64,000 bases of DNA, from contig DYFM01000007.1 of NCBI GenBank assembly GCA_020725175.1, forward strand, positions 1,054 to 65,053, read 5' to 3'. The stretch is from Candidatus Paceibacter sp. (GTDB taxonomy: Bacteria; Patescibacteriota; Patescibacteriia; Magasanikbacterales; UBA922). Under the pieces are notes generated by a model, which saw nothing but the letters and a program-made list of their open reading frames with translations, ran no database searches and was not told the origin of the DNA. Position 1 is the stretch's first letter. Each line of letters opens with the position of its first letter. Positions 17,275 through 54,167 of this stretch are shown piece after piece. The translations under genes and the position numbers were made by a program.

Positions 17275-20200
17275 ATGGGAGGGTATGTAAAAATCTTAAT
17301 AACTATTTTGTTTTTTTTGTTTCATCCTAGTTTTGTTTTTAGTGTAGAGTTAAAGCCATTTGATTATCCTTTATATCAGAAATTGGTACAAACTGTTCGC
17401 TTAGGAGGTAGTTGGAGCAAGTATTACGGTCACTTAGGTGAAGATTATGGTGCTGATCCAGGTGATACAGTATATGCTGTAGCAGATGGTGTTGTAGAGT
17501 TGGTGAAAAATTGGCCTTTGTGTGATAAATTTGAAAAAGTTAATGGTGAGTTAAAGAAAGTTGATAGTGCAAGAGGTTGGGGAGGTGTTGTCATCATAAA
17601 ACATGATTTAAAAGGGGAGGGCAATTTTTTTACGAAGGATCTATATCTTCCTAATTCTCCAGTAGAAGAAAATCCGGAGGTTGTTTTTAGTCAATATGGA
17701 CACTTAACAAACTTAACTGTTACGAATGGGCAGGTTGTTAAAAAAGGAGAAAAAATAGGAGAAATTGGAAAAATGTGTAAGTGGATACCACATCTACATA
17801 TTGAAATTAAAGATAAAAATGCTTTAGAGAACGAAATTTTAGACGGAGTTGGTAGTGGTTACTCTGGTAAACATGATCATGCCCCACATAGATACAAAAT
17901 TTTAGCTTTTATAGAAAAAAATTCTTACTTGAGTCTTTCGGATGATCCCCAACAAAAACCTGCTTCAAACAACCTGGCAAGTCCCATCATTCTTTCTCCA
18001 TTTACAAATCCACAATTCCTCTCCAACTTCTGGTCATCAAATAAGGAGACTGCCGTCTTTGCTGAGCAGTCTCCTTTTTTATTGGAAAATGTCATTGAGC
18101 AGATGAAGAAACCGAAACCAGATAATGATGTTCCGACAAAGGATGCTGGTGAGCCGAAGAATAATCTCGAAAAACCAAAAGAAGTCGTCGAGAACGGCAC
18201 ATATACCGCTACGCTGGTTGGTTCGCCAAAAGAAGTTCAGGTACTAAAAGGGACGAAGACGGTAGAATTGAAGCTCGAAGCAAAAAATAGCGGAACTGTA
18301 GCTTGGAAAAAGAAGGATATTTCGGTGAATGTCGTCGGAGGAAAAGCAAAAAATAGCAAGTACGTCACTGAAAGTTGGTTTACCAAATTGCGACCGGCTC
18401 TCCTTGATCAGGAACAGGTTTCTCCTGGTAGTATAGGAACATTTACGTTTGTCATTGCAATTCCTGAAGATGAAACTTCCATTACCTTACCGTTCATGAT
18501 TGTACGACAAGACGTACAAAACAATTTTTATCAAGTGGGAAATCAGCAATACATATTTCAAATTAAACAAGTGGACAGTTTACCCCTCGTTCAAAATGAA
18601 GAACCAGCTGGAACCGGTGGTCCAACAGATATCGACGATCCAAACTTTTTTGCCGACATATACAACGAAACAAAACAGGTAGTCAAAAAAACAGTTAAGA
18701 AAACTACGGACACAGTGAAAGACATCACCTATGATACTATTGATGTTATTAAAAACATACCACAATACTTTTCCGGTGGTGGGGGATCTTCTATAAATGA
18801 GGGTCAATACGAAGATGATAATTCTGTTGATACAGGAAATGAAAACAATAATGACATTGATATCGATGCTAACATTGAAAGTCCAACCAGCACTCCTAAA
18901 GAAGATGAACAGGTAGAAGAAACCGAAGACGAGCAAGTAGAAGAGCAAATTTCCATTCTTGAACCGGATCACACGCCGTACATTACCAACGCAAATCCAA
19001 TCATAATAGCAGGTGAACGAACGAGTGGGGTGGCAAGTGTTTCGTTGGTGGGAATGGACGCTGAGGTGGAATATCCTACAAGTACCGGTTGGCTTTTGCG
19101 GTTCAATCTATCGGAAGGTGAGCAGATGATTCAGGTGCAGGGGAAAAATGCCGCTGGAGCAGTGGTTGCGACTACAAGCGTTGGGTATGTATTTGACGTT
19201 ACGCCACCAGATACTCCTGGTGTAACAATTACCCAAACCGGAACAGATCCGACGTATGTTTCGGTGTCGTGGATTTCTTCGGATACGTTGAGTGGAATAA
19301 TGTCGTATGACGTAGAGCGAAAGTTGATGGGGAACGAAGCAAATGAGTGGGAACGTGTGCTTACAGATACGGCGGAAACAGAATATAATTTTGAAGCGTA
19401 TCTTGGTGATATATATGCGATTCGAGTTCGCGCACGGGATCGGGCGTACAATATTTCGGAGTGGAGTGGTGGAGAAGAAGGGGAGACGTATTATGTTGAT
19501 TATACAAAAGAACTAGTGATCAATGAAGTAAACTGGATGGGGACGATGAATAAGGCAACCGGTGGATGTCGAGATCATGAGTGGATTGAACTCTACAACC
19601 CAACAGAAAATCCGATCGACTTGACCGGTTGGACAGTGACGATTGAAAACAAATCCGGACAGATGAATACGCTTACACCGACCGGTTCTGTTTCTCCGCG
19701 GTCATATTACCTTTTGGCTCGAAAAGCATCAAGCCGTTCAGCTGTGATAGACCTTCCGATTGATCATGAATACCAGAATATTGTTTTGCCAAATGATGGC
19801 GCACGGTTAACGTTACGGAATAGCGTGGGTGAAATAGTCGACGAAGTGAATTTTGTTGACAAATGGCCGGCAGGTACACAAACTGGTGGACCAAGTAAAA
19901 ATTTCTATCGTTCCATGGAACGGGTGAGTTCGTATTTGCCGGGAAGTTTGACTGACAATTGGCGGACGAATCAACATATTCCGGTTCTTGGGAGAACAAA
20001 TAATTGTGGTGAATTATTTGGGTCACCGCGCCAACCAAACAACGGACACTGGTTGTTGCGTGCACCGGACTTTTATTATGCTGATGTGTTTGATGCTTCC
20101 GGTACGTTAACACTTTCAAACCGTTTCAGTCCATATGTATTGGACATTGGAACAATAATTCCGGCTGGAAAAACATTGGTGCTCGAGCCGGGGGTAGTGG

Positions 20201-21639
20201 TGCTTGGGAAGGGTAAAGAGAGTTATCTCGAAGTTTCAGGAACGCTGATGGTCAATGGAACAGCAGAGGCACCGGTTATCTTTACCTCAAGCCGAGATAG
20301 GGTAAACGCCGGATCGGTATACTGGGCAAACATCGGCGAACCGACAGCTGGAGATTGGTCGCGGATTCAAGTGGTAAAGGGTGGTATGGCAACAGTTAAT
20401 AACGCAAAATTTTATTACGGTGGGTATCCAGACTCAAAAACATTGACTGTTTTCAATAATCTCGAAGCAGCCAATGTCATTCGAAATATTGACAGTACGC
20501 TTACAATTACCAATAGTGTATTTTCAAACACCTATCTCCCAGTGACAGACCAATCTTATGGAGCAGTGGTTTGGACGGAAAGTACTCCGGGAAAAACAGC
20601 TGAAACACATATTACCGGCTCCACATTCATCAATGGACGGTATGGGTATAAACAAAAAGGAACAGGGGTGGTGAGTAGTATTAAGAATTCTTCATTTCAA
20701 CAGTTTGTAGGACCGGAAGGACCGATTGTATTGTGGAATGCCTGGAGTTTGTTGGGTCAAAACATACTGCAAAACAACAGGAGTAATGCAATTTCTTTGC
20801 GGAATATTTCTTTTGTATCAAGTACGACATTGACCGCTGAGCACCCGTACGTAGTTGACGGATTAACTGTGCAGCCGGGAGTAACAGTAACCGTTGATCC
20901 GGGTACGGAACTCAAGATGACCACCAACAGCGGTATTATCGTTGATGGAACATTTGAGGTTGGTGGGGTAGGTGGACAGCCGGTTATCATTCACGGATTG
21001 AATGGTGCTGCTTGGAATAGAATTGTCTTTAACAATTCTACATCTCGGATACAAAATACAACTATCTCCGGTGGAAATCATGGGGCACTCACATCACAAA
21101 AAGGCGGAATGATTTTATCTAATAATTCCGAACTTACGTTTGAAGACGTATCATTTTCTACCAGTAAGATGAGTGGAAATCTCATTGAAGGATATGGGTC
21201 AACTATTGCGGTTCGTGATAGTGTCCTTCGTTTTGATGAACTGCAAACCGATCCGAGCCACAAAACAGCTGGTATATATGTTGAAGGTGGAATGGTGACA
21301 GTGGAAAATACAACCTTTCAAAACATGGTGTATGGGGTGATGGCCAAGCTCGGGGCGGTGGTATCGTTTTTACGCATGGGTATTGAACATTTTATCAACA
21401 CCATTGCTAGTTGGTGGCCGCTTGAACTGTTTACCTTTGAACCAGAACCGGTGGTGGAAGAAGTGGTGGAAGAGTTACCAGAGCCGGTAGAAGTGCTTGA
21501 AGTAAATAAGGAATTGATTGAAGAAACGCCTGTGATTGTTGAAGAGATAGCTGAAGAAGTGGTGGTACCGGAAGAGAATGAATCGTTAGATGAGAATGAT
21601 ACAGGGGAGGAGGTTTTTAAAATTAGTGAAGGTATATAG
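17275..21639 (+). CDS. Giant secreted/surface protein: M23 peptidase domain + lamin-tail domain + right-handed beta-helix repeats + acidic C-terminal tail
   Basis: Signal peptide. M23/LytM-like YGHLGEDYGADPGDTVYAVADG...HLHIEIKD. LTD signature VINEVNWMG...HEWIELYNPTENPIDLTGW. Multiple G/N/T/S-rich beta-helix repeats. C-terminal EEVVEELPEPVEVLEV. Confidence 0.7.
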   Translation: MGGYVKILITILFFLFHPSFVFSVELKPFDYPLYQKLVQTVRLGGSWSKYYGHLGEDYGADPGDTVYAVADGVVELVKNWPLCDKFEKVNGELKKVDSARGWGGVVIIKHDLKGEGNFFTKDLYLPNSPVEENPEVVFSQYGHLTNLTVTNGQVVKKGEKIGEIGKMCKWIPHLHIEIKDKNALENEILDGVGSGYSGKHDHAPHRYKILAFIEKNSYLSLSDDPQQKPASNNLASPIILSPFTNPQFLSNFWSSNKETAVFAEQSPFLLENVIEQMKKPKPDNDVPTKDAGEPKNNLEKPKEVVENGTYTATLVGSPKEVQVLKGTKTVELKLEAKNSGTVAWKKKDISVNVVGGKAKNSKYVTESWFTKLRPALLDQEQVSPGSIGTFTFVIAIPEDETSITLPFMIVRQDVQNNFYQVGNQQYIFQIKQVDSLPLVQNEEPAGTGGPTDIDDPNFFADIYNETKQVVKKTVKKTTDTVKDITYDTIDVIKNIPQYFSGGGGSSINEGQYEDDNSVDTGNENNNDIDIDANIESPTSTPKEDEQVEETEDEQVEEQISILEPDHTPYITNANPIIIAGERTSGVASVSLVGMDAEVEYPTSTGWLLRFNLSEGEQMIQVQGKNAAGAVVATTSVGYVFDVTPPDTPGVTITQTGTDPTYVSVSWISSDTLSGIMSYDVERKLMGNEANEWERVLTDTAETEYNFEAYLGDIYAIRVRARDRAYNISEWSGGEEGETYYVDYTKELVINEVNWMGTMNKATGGCRDHEWIELYNPTENPIDLTGWTVTIENKSGQMNTLTPTGSVSPRSYYLLARKASSRSAVIDLPIDHEYQNIVLPNDGARLTLRNSVGEIVDEVNFVDKWPAGTQTGGPSKNFYRSMERVSSYLPGSLTDNWRTNQHIPVLGRTNNCGELFGSPRQPNNGHWLLRAPDFYYADVFDASGTLTLSNRFSPYVLDIGTIIPAGKTLVLEPGVVVLGKGKESYLEVSGTLMVNGTAEAPVIFTSSRDRVNAGSVYWANIGEPTAGDWSRIQVVKGGMATVNNAKFYYGGYPDSKTLTVFNNLEAANVIRNIDSTLTITNSVFSNTYLPVTDQSYGAVVWTESTPGKTAETHITGSTFINGRYGYKQKGTGVVSSIKNSSFQQFVGPEGPIVLWNAWSLLGQNILQNNRSNAISLRNISFVSSTTLTAEHPYVVDGLTVQPGVTVTVDPGTELKMTTNSGIIVDGTFEVGGVGGQPVIIHGLNGAAWNRIVFNNSTSRIQNTTISGGNHGALTSQKGGMILSNNSELTFEDVSFSTSKMSGNLIEGYGSTIAVRDSVLRFDELQTDPSHKTAGIYVEGGMVTVENTTFQNMVYGVMAKLGAVVSFLRMGIEHFINTIASWWPLELFTFEPEPVVEEVVEELPEPVEVLEVNKELIEETPVIVEEIAEEVVVPEENESLDENDTGEEVFKISEGI

Positions 21640-21642
21640 ACC

Positions 21643-22095
21643 TTCGGATGAAACGGATTTAACCGATTAAAGCTGATTTTTTATGCTGAAACATGAAGCG
21701 CTAACAAATGAAATAATTCGTTGTTATTATGATGTGTACAATGAGCTGGGGTTTGGATTTTTGGAAAAAGTATATGAGAATGCCTATGTTATTCGTTTGC
21801 AAGAAAAAGGAATACATGGAAAACGTCAGGTTCCAATAAAAGTTTTCTATCATGAGCACGATGTAGGGTTATACTATGCTGATATTGTAGTAGAAGACGT
21901 GATTATTATTGAGATGAAAGCGGCTGAAAATTTATGTTTAGAACATGAGTTACAATTAAAAAATTATCTTCGTGCAACAGATAAAGAAATAGGATTCTTG
22001 TTTAACTTTGGTATCAAACCGGAATTTCGACGTCAGTATTTCGAAAACCAATACAAAAGATCAGTTCAAACTAGTTAAATCCGTTTTATCCGAAG
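21643..22095 (+). mobile_element. MITE-like cassette with 20-bp terminal inverted repeats (CTTCGGATGAAACGGATTTA ... TAAATCCGTTTTATCCGAAG) carrying a single GxxExxY gene
   Basis: Left arm 21643-21662 and the reverse complement of right arm 22076-22095 match at 19/20 positions. Related cargo-less copies sit at 28265-28335, 44984-45063 and 53486-53560. Confidence 0.45.
21683..22078 (+). CDS. GxxExxY family protein (PD-(D/E)xK nuclease-like small protein)
   Basis: GFGFLEKVYENAY (GxxExxY), then DIVVEDVIIIEMK (D..E.K) and FLFNFG. 131 aa is typical of the TIGR04256-type family. Confidence 0.65.
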   Translation: MLKHEALTNEIIRCYYDVYNELGFGFLEKVYENAYVIRLQEKGIHGKRQVPIKVFYHEHDVGLYYADIVVEDVIIIEMKAAENLCLEHELQLKNYLRATDKEIGFLFNFGIKPEFRRQYFENQYKRSVQTS

Positions 22096-22164
22096 ATCTA
22101 TCAATTATGTAGTGCATACTGGCTTGTCGCCTGGAGTCCAATATGATATTATCAAGCATATTCT

Positions 22165-24331
22165 ATGCTCGATCTTCTCAAACACCACTTTGGCTACGAT
22201 ACCTTCCGCCCCATGCAGGAAGATATTATCAAGACAGTCCTGAACAAACAGGATTGTTTGGTTTTAATGCCGACCGGTGGAGGGAAATCGCTCTGTTATC
22301 AGCTTCCGGCACTAACGCTTGGCGGTATCACACTAGTCGTTTCTCCGCTTATCGCTCTTATGAAGGATCAGGTAGACGCACTGAGGACAAACGGCATAGC
22401 AGCGGCATATATCAATAGTAGTTTGTCATATGAAGAACACCGTCAGATTCAGGAGCAGGTAAAAAATAACCAGCTCAGCATTCTTTATATTGCTCCAGAA
22501 CGATTTGCGATTCCTTCTTTCCAACAGTGGTTGAAACATTTACCGATTCAACTCATTGCCATTGATGAGGCCCATTGTATCTCGGAATGGGGACATGATT
22601 TTCGCCCGGACTATCGAAATTTAAAAGTATTACGCTCGGAATTTCCCACTGTTCCGGTGATTGCTCTCACTGCTACAGCTACGAAACAAGTGCGTGAGGA
22701 TATAATAAATCAGCTATCTTTGCATGACGGAAAAATTTTTACCAGTGGCTTCAATCGACCAAACCTATCGTACATTGTTGAACCGAAAGGAGAAACGTTT
22801 TCTCGGCTCTGTTATTGGTTGAATAGATATAAAGGAGAGCCAACTATTATTTATGCCTTTTCTCGAAAAAACACCGAAGAGTTGGCGGCTGATCTGAATC
22901 GGGAAGGGTTTAATGCGCTGGCATATCATGCTGGTCTTGATCCTGAGACCAGACGGTATACCCAAGAACAATTTGTGCGGGACAAAGTTTCTATTATTGT
23001 CGCGACCATTGCTTTTGGTATGGGAATTGATAAGCCGGACGTGCGGTTGGTCATTCATGCTGATCTCCCAAAGTCAGTGGAAGGGTATTATCAAGAAACC
23101 GGACGTGCCGGACGTGATGGGTTGCCGAGTGACTGTGTTCTTTTTTACTCTCCGGGTGATATCCGTAAACATCGCTATTTTATTCAGCAAATCGAAGATG
23201 ATGCCGAGCGGCAGCGTGCCTCAGAAAAATTGTCTGACATTGTGACGTACTGTGAGCGGGGAGCCTGTCGAAGAACGTTTTTACTGGAATACTTTGGTGA
23301 TCAGTATCATGCCGATGAGTGTGGTAATTGTGATGCTTGTTTAACTCCGAAAGAAACATTTGACGCGACTGAAATAGCCCAAAAAATTATCTCAGCGATT
23401 CTAAAAAACCGGAGAAAAATATGGGGGTAGCTACATTGTTGAGGTGTTAAAAGGTTCTCGTATAAAAAGTGTACGTGAGCGAGGGCATCAAGATTTATCC
23501 GTATTTGGAATTGTCGGTCGAGAATATTCCAAGGAAGATTTGAAAGTACTTATTCGACAAATTGAACAAGCTGGATTAATCTTGAAACAAGATGGAGAAT
23601 ATCCTACATTGTACTTAACTCCGCAGGGGAGAGAATGGTTGATGCGACGTGATTCTTTAGAATTGGTCCGCCCGGCGAAAAGAAACGCTTCGACTGCTTC
23701 CGAACATGCTGAGCCGGTTGACGTTGATCATACTCTCTTTGAACGGTTACGCGATTTGCGTAAACAACTGGCTGATGAAGCTGGTGTTCCGCCGTTTGTA
23801 ATTTTTGGAAATCAGTCACTTATGGAAATGGCAACTTATTTTCCTACTGATCTCGATCAGTTTTCCAAGATTACTGGGGTAGGAGATCAAAAGTTGGTGC
23901 AGTTTGGTGAATCGTTTACTTCACATATTAAAACATATTGCATTGAAACCGGTAAACAGGCAAAGCCAATTCCTCGTCGAATAAAAACATCCACTGAACG
24001 GCGAACCATCAAAACCGATTCGACGTACCAGATTACTAAAAGTCTTATTGAACAAGGAAGAACTATTGGAGAGGTCGCCAAAGAACGACGAATGGCAGAA
24101 TCAACCGTTATGTCACATATTGAAAAACTGTTGCGTGCCGGAGAAACTGTATCGTTGAATCATATTGAGTTTAGGGCTGACCGCTTTCAAGTTATCAAAC
24201 AGGCATTTCAGCGAGCGGGAGACAGCAAACTCACACCGGTTAAGGAACTGCTCGGAGATGAATACTCTTATGACGAGTTGCGGTTAGCACGATTACTGAT
24301 AATTTCACATTCGAGTTTAGCTCATAGGTAA
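22165..24331 (+). CDS. recQ: ATP-dependent DNA helicase RecQ, interrupted by a +1 frameshift in an A6 run at ~23416-23421
   Basis: Helicase motifs LVLMPTGGGKSLCYQLPAL, DEAHCISEWGHDFRPDY, the zinc-binding cysteine cluster, the RQC block GSYIVEVLKGSR in the shifted frame, the HRDC block FSKITGVGDQKLVQFGESF and a C-terminal HTH. Removing one A gives the continuous ILKTGEKYGGSYIVEVLKG. Confidence 0.8.
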
Positions 24332-27885: not shown

Positions 27886-28248
27886 GTGAACAACCTTACT
27901 CCCGAAGAACAATTCATCATCGAACAAAAAGGCACTGAGCCGCCATTTTCCGGTGAATATGATAATCATTTTGCGGATGGTATGTATGTTTGTCGTAAAT
28001 GCAATACGCCACTGTATGACTCAAAAAGTAAATTTCATTCCGGTTGTGGCTGGCCGAGTTTTGATGAGGAAGTTCCGGGAGCGGTAAAGCGAGAGGTAGA
28101 TGCGGATGGAATTCGAACTGAGATTATCTGTGCCAATTGCGGAGGGCATCTTGGGCATGTATTTATTGGTGAGCAGTTTACCGAAAAAAATACTCGACAT
28201 TGTGTGAATTCATTGTCGATGAAGTTTATTCCGAGAAGTACCATTTAA
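27886..28248 (+). CDS. msrB: Peptide-methionine (R)-S-oxide reductase MsrB
   Basis: CGWPSF ... CANCGGHLGHVF with paired CxxC zinc ligands and the catalytic RHC. SelR domain, 120 aa. Confidence 0.85.
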   Translation: MNNLTPEEQFIIEQKGTEPPFSGEYDNHFADGMYVCRKCNTPLYDSKSKFHSGCGWPSFDEEVPGAVKREVDADGIRTEIICANCGGHLGHVFIGEQFTEKNTRHCVNSLSMKFIPRSTI

Positions 28249-28264
28249 TAGATCATGTTTGCCC

Positions 28265-28335
28265 GCTTTGAGTGAGGATTTATCGGATGGAACGGATCTA
28301 TACGGATCCGTACACATCCGTTTTATCTGTTTGAT
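28265..28335. repeat. Family B repeat, cargo-less copy (GGATTTATCGGATGGAACGGATC...GGATCCGTACACATCCGTTTTATC)
   Basis: Shares CGGATG.AACGGAT and ATCCGTTTTATC cores with the inverted-repeat arms of the 21643-22095 cassette. Lies between msrB and msrA. Confidence 0.5.
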
Positions 28336-28359
28336 CTGTGGTCCATTTACTTATAATAT

Positions 28360-28902
28360 ATGAATAAAGTAACTGATGTCATTACGTTCGGTGGTGGTTG
28401 TTTCTGGTGTACAGAGGCGGCTTTTTCTCGTATACGCGGAGTTGTGTCGGTTGTTCCTGGGTACGCTGGAGGAGATACGCCAGATCCGACATATGAGCAA
28501 GTATGCGCCGGGACTACCGGACATGCGGAAGTGGTGCGGGTGGAATATGATCCAAATCAAATTTCACTATCAGCACTTCTTGATGTCTTCTTTACTGTTC
28601 ATGATCCAACTACACTTGATCGTCAGGGAAATGACGTGGGTCCACAGTACCGATCAATTATTCTTTATTCTTCTGAAGATCAGCGACAAACAATTGAGCA
28701 ATACATTAAGAATTTAACAAAAGAACAGGTCTTTCCTCATCCAATTGTTACTGTTGTGAAGCCGTTGCAGGTATTTTATTTAGCAGAGTCGGAGCACGTG
28801 AGATATTTTGAGCGAAATCCGGAGAAATTGTATTGTCAGTTGGTTATATACCCAAAGTTACTCAAGCTCAAAGAACGGTATAAACAGTTATTGCAGGAAT
28901 AG
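28360..28902 (+). CDS. msrA: Peptide-methionine (S)-S-oxide reductase MsrA
   Basis: GGGCFWCTEAAF and GYAGG...PTYEQVCAGTTGHAEVV are MsrA signatures. Confidence 0.85.
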   Translation: MNKVTDVITFGGGCFWCTEAAFSRIRGVVSVVPGYAGGDTPDPTYEQVCAGTTGHAEVVRVEYDPNQISLSALLDVFFTVHDPTTLDRQGNDVGPQYRSIILYSSEDQRQTIEQYIKNLTKEQVFPHPIVTVVKPLQVFYLAESEHVRYFERNPEKLYCQLVIYPKLLKLKERYKQLLQE

Positions 28903-44943: not shown

Positions 44944-44963
44944 ATGGGTAAAATAAAATAGAC

Positions 44964-45063
44964 CACGCCTGCCCGCCTTGGGAGGGGATTAAACGGATTG
45001 AACGAATCAAGACGGATCCGTTAGAATCCGTTTTATTCGTCTAATCCGAAGTCTATTTAAATT
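44964..45063. repeat. Composite repeat: family A core (CACGCCTGCCCGCCTTGGG) joined to a family B cargo-less element (GGATTAAACGGATTGAACG...AATCCGTTTTATTCGTCTAATCCGAAG)
   Basis: The first ~45 bp are the reverse complement of 53545-53586. The right end matches the right inverted repeat of the 21643-22095 cassette. Confidence 0.6.
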
Positions 45064-52623: not shown

Positions 52624-52661
52624 CGCATAGTCTGAATATGGCTATGCGTTTTTTTGTTTTT
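52624..52661 (+). terminator. Rho-independent terminator (CGCATAG-loop-CTATGCG followed by TTTTTTTGTTTTT)
   Basis: 7-bp GC-containing stem, 11-nt loop and a 12-nt T-rich tract, read directly. Confidence 0.7.
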
Positions 52662-52663
52662 GA

Positions 52664-52752
52664 GTCCACCCCCACCCCCACCCAAGGCGGGTAAACAAGG
52701 CGGGTAAACAAGGCAGACAGGTAAGGCGGGCACGTGCGGCAGGGAAATTCAT
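52664..52752. repeat. Family A repeat copy 2: (CCCCA)n followed by tandem 13-bp repeats CAAGGCGGGTAAA and the conserved tail GACAGGTAAGGCGGGCACGTGCGGCAGGGAAATTCATT
   Basis: Same architecture as 12485-12612, with consistent GGA to GGG substitutions in every unit. Confidence 0.8.
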
Positions 52753-52877: not shown

Positions 52878-53483
52878 CTACTTTTTACATCGTTTCAGCT
52901 CGGAAAGTCTGGTTGGTTGAATTCCTTTTTGGGTATTTTCTTGGTTGGTGTAATATTCTGATGGTGAAAATGTATAACAACCAACTCTCAGCCAAGTTTG
53001 CCCGGCATCTTTTGTTTCATAGCGCACGAGAGCAGGTGGTTCTTTTTTGGGAAACTGTTCTTTGAGATCAATAAAAATCGATCCGGTTTCATCCGTATAC
53101 ATTCCCACCGGAATAAATGGCTTGGAGAGTTTTTTGGGAAGAGTTAGTTTGGAAGTGTCGAGAAATGGTTCCCATGATTTACCACGGGTAGTACTGAGAT
53201 ATACTGTGCTATTATTGTCTGTTGATGTAGAAAAAGCAAATAAAAACAAAGCTCGATTTAGTTCATAGGTTGAATCAACGTCTTGAGGTGGTACATTTTT
53301 TGGGTATAATCGCTCCGGAAAATTGACAAAATATTGAATTTGTTGTTTGAGTGGAGCGATGGTTTCAGGGGCGAGTGATTCTCGTTCTTTGGGGATTGGT
53401 TTTGTTGTTATTTTTGAGGATGATAAAGAACAGCCTGATATTAGGAGTAGGGATGTGATTAATATTACTAATTTTTTATGCAT
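52878..53483 (-). CDS. Hypothetical lipoprotein
   Basis: Signal peptide with lipobox LISGCS. Confidence 0.5.
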   Translation of the reverse strand: MHKKLVILITSLLLISGCSLSSSKITTKPIPKERESLAPETIAPLKQQIQYFVNFPERLYPKNVPPQDVDSTYELNRALFLFAFSTSTDNNSTVYLSTTRGKSWEPFLDTSKLTLPKKLSKPFIPVGMYTDETGSIFIDLKEQFPKKEPPALVRYETKDAGQTWLRVGCYTFSPSEYYTNQENTQKGIQPTRLSELKRCKK

Positions 53484-53485
53484 AT

Positions 53486-53588
53486 TGTTAATAGACCGCG
53501 GATTTAACGGATGAAACGAATTTTTACTGATCTGTTATTATCCGTTCAATCGGTTTAATCCCCACCCAAGGCGGGCAGGCGTGTTCCT
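53486..53588. repeat. Composite repeat: family B element (CGGATTTAACGGATGAAACGAAT...ATCCGTTCAATCGGTTTAATCC) joined to a family A core (CCACCCAAGGCGGGCAGGCGTG)
   Basis: 53545-53586 is the reverse complement of 44964-45005. Confidence 0.6.
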
Positions 53589-53603
53589 ATTATCTTTTAT
53601 ATG

Positions 53604-54167
53604 TTATTCAAAAAGCATTTTCTTAAATCCCTCAAACTTTTCCGGAAACAAAAACCGCATGCGCAGTAACTCAAACGCAAATTGTTTTTCTACAAAATCA
53701 TCGGATGCTGCAATATTAAGAAATTCATCAAACGTGAGTGCGAGAGGAACAATTTTTTCGCCGGAGTCTTGATTTGGCGCACTTACTTGTTGACAGTCTC
53801 TAGCAATATAGGTGTAGACGGTAAAATCCATTTTGTCAGATGGTTCGTACGTAGAAAAAAGCGTGAGAGATTGTGGAACAAAGCCGGTTTCTTCTTTGAG
53901 TTCACGAAGCGCGCATTCTTCTGGCGTTTCGTTTTCTTTATCTTGTCGGCCACCAAAAAATCCATAAAATTCTTTTGTTTTGACTCCAGATTGCTGCTCT
54001 TTTGCTATGATAATATTGTTTCCTTGTGTTGCTAGAACGCGAATGGAGTTTACGCGCTTCAACATTTCAAATGTTGCCGTCGAGCCGTCAAATAGTTCTT
54101 GCTCCCATTGGTAAGTATCATAAATGATTCCTTGAAAAACTCGTTTTGCATGGGGAGGGAGTTGCAT
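53604..54167 (-). CDS. NUDIX hydrolase
   Basis: Nudix box GGRQDKENETPEECALRELKEETG. Confidence 0.65.
   Translation of the reverse strand: MQLPPHAKRVFQGIIYDTYQWEQELFDGSTATFEMLKRVNSIRVLATQGNNIIIAKEQQSGVKTKEFYGFFGGRQDKENETPEECALRELKEETGFVPQSLTLFSTYEPSDKMDFTVYTYIARDCQQVSAPNQDSGEKIVPLALTFDEFLNIAASDDFVEKQFAFELLRMRFLFPEKFEGFKKMLFE

Follow-up and report, generated by a model that had tools for sequence, protein, structure and literature searches.

The window analysed here, a stretch of 64,000 nucleotides from a Candidatus Paceibacter sp. assembly (GCA_020725175.1, contig DYFM01000007.1, positions 1,054 to 65,053 of the forward strand), holds a short cassette between the gene of a 1454-aa protein with Peptidase_M23 and lamin-tail (LTD) domains and recQ. 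The cassette carries a single gene of the GxxExxY family, enclosed by inverted arms. A sequence-only reading of this locus had proposed a mobile cassette; that idea is partly right, and the observation behind it is real but was understated. It appears that the cassette exemplifies a broad association of nuclease genes with palindromic repeats, for which we found no prior description. On balance we favor, with moderate confidence, a repeat system that resembles REP doublets forming hairpins (REPINs; REP, repetitive extragenic palindromic) and their REP-associated tyrosine transposases (RAYTs), served here by a minimal PD-(D/E)XK nuclease, with the cassette as the gene-bearing member of a palindromic repeat family. 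All of the evidence is computational, and the analyses of neighboring genes rest on mechanical open reading frame (ORF) calls.

The arms and the gene between them

The sequence-only reading described terminal inverted repeats of 20 nt. These 20-mers are complementary at 19 of 20 positions, the sole mismatch being a G opposite a T, and the right one lies where it had been placed (22076-22095). The left one occupies 21642-21661, one base before the stated 21643-21662, and the inverted repeat as a whole is longer than had been described: a repeat search gave 47-nt arms that are 81% complementary and 372 nt apart (Table 1). The chance expectation for a second copy of the 20-mer with at most three mismatches was 0.00 in 100 shuffles of the window. 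As that reading also held, the arms bracket exactly one gene of 131 aa, and the right arm overlaps its TAA stop codon (22076-22078). The GC content is 0.33 in the cassette and 0.405 in the window. A scan of the cassette showed no enrichment of promoter or terminator signals, and read-through expression is therefore the simplest reading.

Most homologous loci, from a range of phyla, share this architecture. We examined 80 loci of relatives (50-61% identity) from single-species genomes, of which 72 were testable, and the phyla sampled were Bacteroidota, Ignavibacteria, Patescibacteria, Planctomycetota, Desulfobacterota, Chloroflexota, Acidobacteriota and others. At 74% of the 72 loci the complementarity between upstream and downstream sequence exceeded the 95th percentile of displaced controls from the same locus. 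The median complementarity score was 29 within a locus, 19 across loci and 15 in shuffled sequence, which indicates a shared motif plus an arm similarity specific to the locus. Arrays of at least three phased units numbered 104 in 448 kb of these loci against one in shuffles; upstream of the gene they are in forward orientation, downstream in reverse.

When the arms are anchored on their first GAT, the resulting profile begins with (A)AATAGAAC or TGGAAC as the outer box, followed by four units and a T-run that abuts the ATG. The units place a GAT every 9 nt (GAACRCNGAT, GACRCNGAT, TnnACNGAT and TTAnnCNGAT; overall consensus ..ACNGAT). The left arm of the window cassette has this layout. It matches an arm profile built without any sequence from the window organism at 21645-21681 (E 1.5e-5), and the right arm matches that profile on the minus strand at 22092-22056 (E 0.0016), where its units read ATAGATCTTCGGAT, AAAACGGAT, TTAACTAGT (degenerate) and TTGAACTGAT. 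In the terminal box, the window cassette has ATAGACC where the family consensus is AATAGAAC. More distant homologs vary the theme: one of 42% identity has GAT-type arms, one of 36% has 9-nt units with a CGC core, and that of Gemmatirosa kalamazoonensis (37%) has four 11-nt units, GTCCTTCTTCA, in each arm and a repeat score of 89.5. The distances between proteins and between arms were correlated over 25 loci (Mantel r = 0.48, p <= 5e-4; shared ancestry uncorrected). GxxExxY is moreover the only recurrent cargo, no other having been found among 87 termini without a short partner; isolated cases of other cargo beside arms were one AbiJ-like protein and one HicB-like ORF.

The enclosed gene is functional, as judged by invariant catalytic residues, a confident structure model and a low ratio of nonsynonymous to synonymous substitution rates (dN/dS). 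Its product belongs to PF13366 (PDDEXK_3; E 1.4e-37, 129 bits against a cut-off of 22), the only Pfam match of the ORF, and to TIGR04256 (GxxExxY; E 8.4e-35, 119.6 bits against a cut-off of 35). Residues E28 in the GxxExxY helix, D67, E77, K79 and Q91 are invariant in 32 homologs, the motifs being G25-F-L-E28-K-V-Y31 and E77-x-K79. The AlphaFold (AF2) model (pLDDT 92, pTM 0.85) is a minimal restriction-endonuclease-like fold, aa-bbb-a-bb, with helices at 5-22, 28-41 and 86-98 and strands at 46-56, 59-70, 74-79, 103-108 and 114-119, and it contains the alpha-beta-beta-beta-alpha-beta core of such enzymes. Its Foldseek neighbors, all of low identity, were Cas4 SSO0001 (4ic1, E 3e-4), a lambda-exonuclease-like protein (3syy), a Spirosoma protein of unknown function and Hjc (2wiz); a search of PDB sequences with the family profile gave no match, and the protein matches no PHROG family. 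We ruled out a known anti-phage defense protein, as the PADLOC models gave no significant match, the weak ones being PDC-S02 (E 0.003) and Cas4 (E 0.01). For an orthologous pair (L032/L053), which occupies one locus in two Draconibacterium species, dN/dS was 0.08 (dN = 0.053, dS = 0.646), and the gene is thus maintained by selection. More than 1,400 relatives of the window protein were found among the candidates scored, and the family is sporadic, spread over many phyla and patchy in copy number.

Because the right arm overlaps the end of the gene, arm sequence is also translated. The conserved 'KK-SV' tails at the C-terminus of many homologs are the translated inner units of the right arm, and they form the low-confidence tail of the structure model. 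Odd C-terminal extensions in three further proteins, P0036, P0049 and P0067 ('TDDTDGTDD', SVHIRLIRIIRV and NTDEIDWHGLDSCKSV), are translated ACGGAT/ATCCGT arm units. For annotation this means that read-through into arms yields spurious tails in database proteins, such as 'IRLIRIIRV' and 'TDDTDGTDD'.

Gene-less hairpins and placement

Gene-less hairpins far outnumber gene-bearing copies. When metagenome contigs were scanned for GAACRCGGATGACRCGGAT, the most frequent terminus, at least 120 loci matched. Among the matches listed, 64 left termini were paired with a right terminus within 4 kb, with spans below 150 bp in 47 cases, of 150-300 bp in 11 and of 300-700 bp in six, and a GxxExxY ORF was present in five of the 120 scanned loci. 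The short forms consist of two arms fused head to head (63-271 bp, with termini AAT(A/G)GAAC...GTTC(T/C)ATT). They are intergenic in 41 of 44 cases, and the flanking genes, in the 25 cases counted, were co-directional in 17, convergent in seven and divergent in one.

The sequence-only reading had made its mobile interpretation depend on whether the arms are repeated elsewhere, and they are: the exact 20-mer is unique, though the profile finds related arms in three gene-less hairpins of the window (Table 1). The hairpins take up nearly all of the spacer in which they lie; for the hairpin at 28267 this is the spacer between ORFs 27886-28248 and 28360-28902, and for the hairpin at 53489 that between ORFs 52878-53483 and 53604-54167, both on the minus strand. 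At its right end (…CCGAAGTCTAT) the hairpin at 44956 resembles the cassette (…CCGAAGATCTAT). L083, another contig from the metagenome bin of the window, carries one more hairpin and one more gene-bearing cassette, whose arms match perfectly over 32 nt and whose product, P0022, is 64% identical to the window protein. The window and L083 together (∼74 kb) contain two gene-bearing cassettes and four hairpins, and at least five of their 12 arms have a GACC terminus against the GAAC of the family. In Gemmatirosa the arm region occurs in at least 38 copies on plasmid 1 and 25 on plasmid 2, both megaplasmids, and in none of the plasmids of other organisms. The dispersed copies, roughly one in every 13 kb, are hairpins without a gene, and the GxxExxY genes are found at two places, both on plasmid 1, with the gene lying between two whole hairpins.

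The cassettes are placed in a constrained way. The upstream neighbor is co-oriented with the cassette in 63 of 68 loci and the downstream neighbor in 50 of 60, and the distance from the end of the upstream stop codon to the terminus is 0-15 nt in 27 of 29 loci. In the window the TAG of the terminus is itself the upstream stop codon; among the 29 other loci, the terminal TAG serves as the stop or ends within 1 nt of it in seven. The search for target-site duplications that the sequence-only reading had suggested found none of k >= 4 in 48 elements, and at k = 2 they occurred at 12.5% against 5.8% expected. An all-against-all comparison of loci yielded one clean filled and empty pair. In Flavobacterium succinicans (L033) the 484-nt spacer from stop to ATG consists of the arms and the GxxExxY gene, and in a related metagenome contig (L149), with orthologous flanking genes (70% and 84% amino acid identity), the spacer is 1 nt.

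Discreteness, foreign composition, gene-less derivatives and the Flavobacterium polymorphism make a selfish or mobile insert a reasonable class for the cassette. Its description as a homing-type element fares less well, as the insertions lie in unrelated intercistronic spacers; we rejected a homing endonuclease gene on the same ground, the cassettes lying beside many genes and not in a conserved target gene. To call it an insert without its own transposase was premature, since GxxExxY is the sole recurrent cargo and the arms change with the protein lineage, which makes the GxxExxY nuclease the best candidate for the element's own enzyme.

Table 1. Coordinates of the cassette, its parts and the gene-less hairpins within the window
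Feature	Coordinates	Strand	Basis or remark
Whole cassette (left arm, GxxExxY gene, right arm)	21636..22101 (466 bp)	+	Repeat search, GC, RNA fold closing on arms
Left arm	21636..21682	+	Sequence; four-unit layout as in family consensus
Left-arm terminal box ATAGACCTTCGGAT	21636-21649	+	
Left-arm unit GAAACGGAT	21650-21658	+	
Left-arm unit TTAACCGAT	21659-21667	+	
Left-arm unit TAAAGCTGAT	21668-21677	+	
Left-arm T-run (TTTTT), abutting ATG	21678-21682	+	
TAG stop of upstream 1454-aa Peptidase_M23/LTD gene, inside terminal box	21637..21639	+	ORF 17275-21639; Pfam
GxxExxY / PDDEXK_3 gene, 131 aa	21683..22078	+	Pfam and NCBIfam matches; only ORF between arms
Right arm, reverse complement of left	22055..22101	+	Overlaps last ∼8 codons and stop codon
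Gene-less hairpin, 4+4 units, centre TACGGATCCGTA	28267..28347	.	Profile matches 28277-28307 (+) and 28347-28306 (-)
Gene-less hairpin, termini AAATAGACCAC... and ...CCGAAGTCTATTT, near those of the cassette	44956..45058	.	Profile search
Gene-less hairpin, left terminus TAATAGACCGCGGAT	53489..53592	.	Best profile match of the window, 53490-53533, E 1.3e-6

With regard to the neighboring genes, deletion of 21637-22100 would extend the upstream Peptidase_M23 and lamin-tail frame by three codons (…GI-SIM*), and insertion may have slightly trimmed the original C-terminus of that protein. recQ starts at 22165, 64 nt beyond the right terminus of the cassette, and a sigma-70-like site at 22124-22152 (TTGTCG, 17 nt, TATTAT, extended TG) lies in between, from which recQ may keep a promoter of its own despite the insertion. 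In the window recQ consists of two ORFs (22165-23430 and 23444-24331) with a break near 23408, whereas it is intact (721 aa) in an otherwise identical JGI contig (L001), the register being lost from L001 position 6726 by a 1-nt indel. The break may be a genuine frameshift or else reflect a difference between assemblies.

Some individual arrangements deserve mention. An identical 19-nt GC-rich insert, GCCTGCCCGCCTTGGGWGG, is present at 44967-44985 in the left arm of one window hairpin and at 53562-53580 in the right arm of another, in both within unit 1, between GACCAC/GAACAC and GGAT. A degenerate copy (region 52660-52745) adjoins tandem AAGGCGGGTAAAC repeats at ∼52680-52740, and the segment could represent another small family of repeats, one with the arms as its target. 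In L196 (1298-1568) two hairpins appear nested or overlapping on opposite strands, the arm of one lying within the other, which suggests that hairpins insert into hairpins. A deltaproteobacterial metagenome-assembled genome (L017, 1365-3669) has at least six nearly identical gene-less hairpins in tandem with a period of ∼170 bp; its GxxExxY gene lies between two of them, and the 3' end of the gene continues into the next hairpin. Finally, three related phage-like contigs of Bacteroidota have arm-bounded inserts of varying content at one site between genes for 149-aa and 178-aa proteins (L087 1078-2423, L092 264-807, L100 6896-7836). Those of L092 and L100 consist of tandem left arms with no long ORF, and the locus had no BLAST match among annotated phages.

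Interpretation and alternatives

We infer that the GxxExxY nuclease may recognize the units, cleave the termini and drive the spread of the repeats. Four observations point in this direction: the arm abuts the ATG and overlaps the stop codon of the gene, the catalytic residues are invariant, the sequence and period of the units change with the protein lineage, and no other gene recurs. According to the mechanism that we propose, the protein would bind the phased units as a multimer and cut at or near the terminal box, and cutting would copy or move the cassette that encodes it and also, in trans, the hairpins that lack a gene, much as a RAYT transposase serves REPINs or an autonomous element serves MITEs (miniature inverted-repeat transposable elements). 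New copies would land without target-site duplication, a few bases past a stop codon and in the direction of transcription, and the gene, having no promoter of its own, would be expressed by read-through from the upstream gene.

Several points weigh against this interpretation. The link between protein and arms is drawn from sequence comparison, and the correlation of their distances may stem from co-inheritance instead of recognition. About a quarter of the GxxExxY loci have no clear bracket, and our sampling was seeded on relatives of the window protein and on one terminus variant. In the phage-like contig L087, the arms and an additional inverted module (GTGAGTGTAGCTGGTTCCCCTC…) enclose an AbiJ_NTD4 protein of 277 aa and not GxxExxY. 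On two plasmids (L223, Fusobacteria plasmid pZRK30-1; L224, from Persicobacter) the arm-like arrays are in the same sense, both of right-arm type; the upstream array possibly belongs to an element before it, as its right end. A BLAST search for dispersed copies of the Persicobacter arm found only the arm itself, probably since the units are too short for BLAST. As to mobility, the all-against-all BLAST gave only three weak cases of near-identical element copies with unrelated flanks, which say little given the sampling, and with so few of them recent transposition is no more than a possibility. Insertion and precise deletion are not separable at a single empty site with 70-84% identity in the flanks, and at the window locus the next-best RecQ proteins are 67% identical, from mixed phyla, and too distant for an empty-site comparison.

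A bolder proposal is that GxxExxY proteins are the enzymes of a previously unrecognized class of mobile DNA, made up of ∼0.47-kb elements plus far more abundant gene-less hairpins, with ends of phased 9-11-bp units read by the ∼130-aa PD-(D/E)XK nuclease, spread just past stop codons without target-site duplication, and a distinct transposition chemistry. We put it forward tentatively, as a possibility rather than an expectation. If true, the chemistry would differ from transposition of the DDE, HUH, serine, tyrosine or Cas1 kind, and a large and widespread family would gain a function. Rfam, PDB and the openly searchable literature yielded no description of the association of arms and GxxExxY (subscription-only literature lying outside this search). 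Rfam returned nothing relevant for the cassette at the E-value threshold or for 16 related loci at the gathering threshold, the arm sequences are absent from the openly searchable literature, and the REP/RAYT and Bacteroidota-repeat literature within it contains no such link. The entry for PF13366 in a 2012 survey of PD-(D/E)XK proteins gives its function as 'Unknown', and GxxExxY is named merely in passing in one literature passage. The arms offer a concrete, testable substrate for the PF13366/TIGR04256 family. The proposed system would also explain the intergenic hairpins that fill spacers in small Patescibacteria-like genomes and number dozens per megabase in Gemmatirosa. If the nuclease mobilizes or maintains them, the system would also inform the question of how repeats that are not autonomous survive in the compact genomes of bacteria.

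Of the alternatives, a domesticated host system survives best, and we still consider it unlikely. Here the hairpins would be functional in the manner of REPs, as stabilizers of mRNA 3' ends, intercistronic insulators or sites for nucleoid proteins, the GxxExxY protein would bind or maintain them, and the bracket around its gene would be an autoregulatory operator array. The strong purifying selection and the retention of an orthologous locus in the two Draconibacterium species fit such a host function as well, which is a further point against our own interpretation. The absence of target-site duplications agrees with it, as do the position of hairpins at gene 3' ends, where divergent promoter regions are avoided, and the apparent persistence of orthologous hairpins in related metagenome contigs with common flanks (L117, L131, L146, L183). 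A pure binding protein, however, would not need the catalytic residues of a nuclease, which are invariant. Nor does domestication sit well with the filled and empty polymorphism of a whole cassette, its AT-richness, the sporadic distribution over many phyla with patchy copy numbers, or the arms in phage-like contigs. The two explanations differ more in emphasis than in mechanism, and for REP/RAYT the boundary between 'domesticated' and 'mobile' is itself debated.

A little less likely still is an RNA cassette of the type of the intervening sequences (IVSs) in rRNA, whose arms would pair in the read-through transcript and be excised by RNase III, sparing the flanking genes. Folded as RNA, the cassette region has a predicted closing stem of ∼40 bp (z = -4.07, with none of 100 shuffles as stable). 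It is strictly co-oriented with its flanking genes, intercistronic and without a promoter of its own, and its architecture is like that of ORF-bearing 23S IVSs (∼430 nt, 28-bp terminal stem, ORF of ∼120 aa, excision by RNase III; PMC4990558). The arm mismatches speak against it. As a general principle, a helix under selection in the sense transcript tolerates G:U and avoids A:C. At 48 loci with a clear repeat we counted 73 G:T or T:G against 82 A:C or C:A mismatches (p = 0.52; other mismatches, 240), and this lack of a wobble excess argues that the arms are conserved as DNA and not as an RNA stem. It also disfavors the transcript stem-loop that the sequence-only reading had held in reserve. 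What is conserved is the phased motif and the terminal box, not pairing as such, and the pattern looks like the arrays of protein-binding sites found in DNA. The gene-less hairpins, furthermore, are nearly loopless (centre GGATCC) and occur between convergent genes too, and the window offers no rRNA context, with neither an rRNA nor any other Rfam family at the gathering threshold and no tRNA in a tRNA scan. The stem may form in read-through RNA, although selection does not seem to act on it; stem formation and cutting may be by-products, and to that extent the RNA explanation is compatible with a nuclease-served repeat system. A Box C/D-like reading of GATGA was rejected, as the motif is Watson-Crick paired in the arms.

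A coincidental, purely local inverted repeat around an ordinary accessory gene, that is, an ancient fixed locus, would agree with the lack of any further exact 20-mer in the window and with the exact-protein look-up, in which every contig carrying the window protein shows the same context, but is exceedingly improbable given the negligible chance expectation, the recurrence of the architecture across phyla and the related arms that occur four more times in the window and L083 sequence.

Comparison with known systems

In its protein fold the GxxExxY family belongs with Cas4, lambda exonuclease and Hjc, with which it shares the catalytic E...D...ExK constellation. Cas4 and lambda exonuclease are about twice its size, however, Cas4 has the cysteines of an Fe-S cluster, which the GxxExxY protein lacks, and GxxExxY genes have no CRISPR or recombination-gene context, unlike this group.

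Like transposons with their MITEs, the elements described here have terminal inverted repeats, and internally deleted, non-autonomous derivatives are more numerous than the copy with the gene. The repeated phased sites at each end also recall the multi-site ends of Tn7 or Mu. Unlike insertion sequences (ISs) and MITEs, on the other hand, the cassette has no DDE, serine or tyrosine transposase, its single ORF being a PD-(D/E)XK nuclease, and it differs from them in its size of ∼0.47 kb, its strict orientation, its placement beside a stop codon and the absence of target-site duplications of k >= 4 in all 48 elements. The lack of a transposase of a known class and of target-site duplications excludes a classical IS or MITE. 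An integron attC cassette was likewise rejected, as the repeat brackets the ORF instead of following it.

The ORF-bearing IVSs of 23S rRNA share with the cassette a length of ∼430-760 nt, terminal inverted repeats that pair (by prediction, for the cassette) into a long stem, a single ORF of ∼120-130 aa, co-orientation with the host transcript and a sporadic distribution (PMC4990558). They lie within rRNA (helix 9, 25 or 45), whereas the cassette lies between protein-coding genes, and its arms have phased units and no substitution bias of the RNA type. The sequence-only reading had placed GxxExxY proteins in rRNA IVSs, which found no support here: in PMC4990558 the IVS ORFs encode S23p four-helix-bundle proteins. 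Such IVSs occur in Leptospira and Coxiella, and the S23p gene of Coxiella is reported to be decaying. The cassette ORF, by contrast, encodes a PD-(D/E)XK alpha/beta fold and is under purifying selection. Since both location and ORF family differ, the cassette is not a member of the rRNA IVSs.

The closest parallel is REP/RAYT (PMC3116915). In both systems inverted copies of a short palindromic repeat flank a nuclease gene of low copy number; the repeat is otherwise dispersed in the same genome as many gene-less intergenic copies, and its sequence is specific to the lineage. In both, purifying selection acts on the gene, which can be retained at an orthologous locus, target-site duplications are absent and copies are placed 3' of genes. 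A RAYT gene between REPs corresponds most directly to the Gemmatirosa GxxExxY gene between two whole hairpins; elsewhere, and unlike RAYT, the GxxExxY gene is mostly contained within one hairpin, with whose right arm it overlaps. The RAYT enzyme is of the HUH/Y1 type (IS200/IS605), whereas here we find a ∼130-aa PD-(D/E)XK nuclease (PF13366). A REP is a GC-rich stem of 20-40 bp with a GTAG or CGTC tag, whereas the arms consist of about four phased 9-11-bp units and a terminal box. RAYT hosts are mainly Proteobacteria, whereas the present system is found in Bacteroidota, Patescibacteria, Gemmatimonadota and others. Because the enzyme is not HUH/Y1 and the arm structure differs, the cassette does not belong to the REPIN/RAYT family itself. 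If the nuclease does mobilize or maintain the hairpins, the system would represent a second, independent invention of the REPIN/RAYT arrangement, built on another nuclease superfamily.

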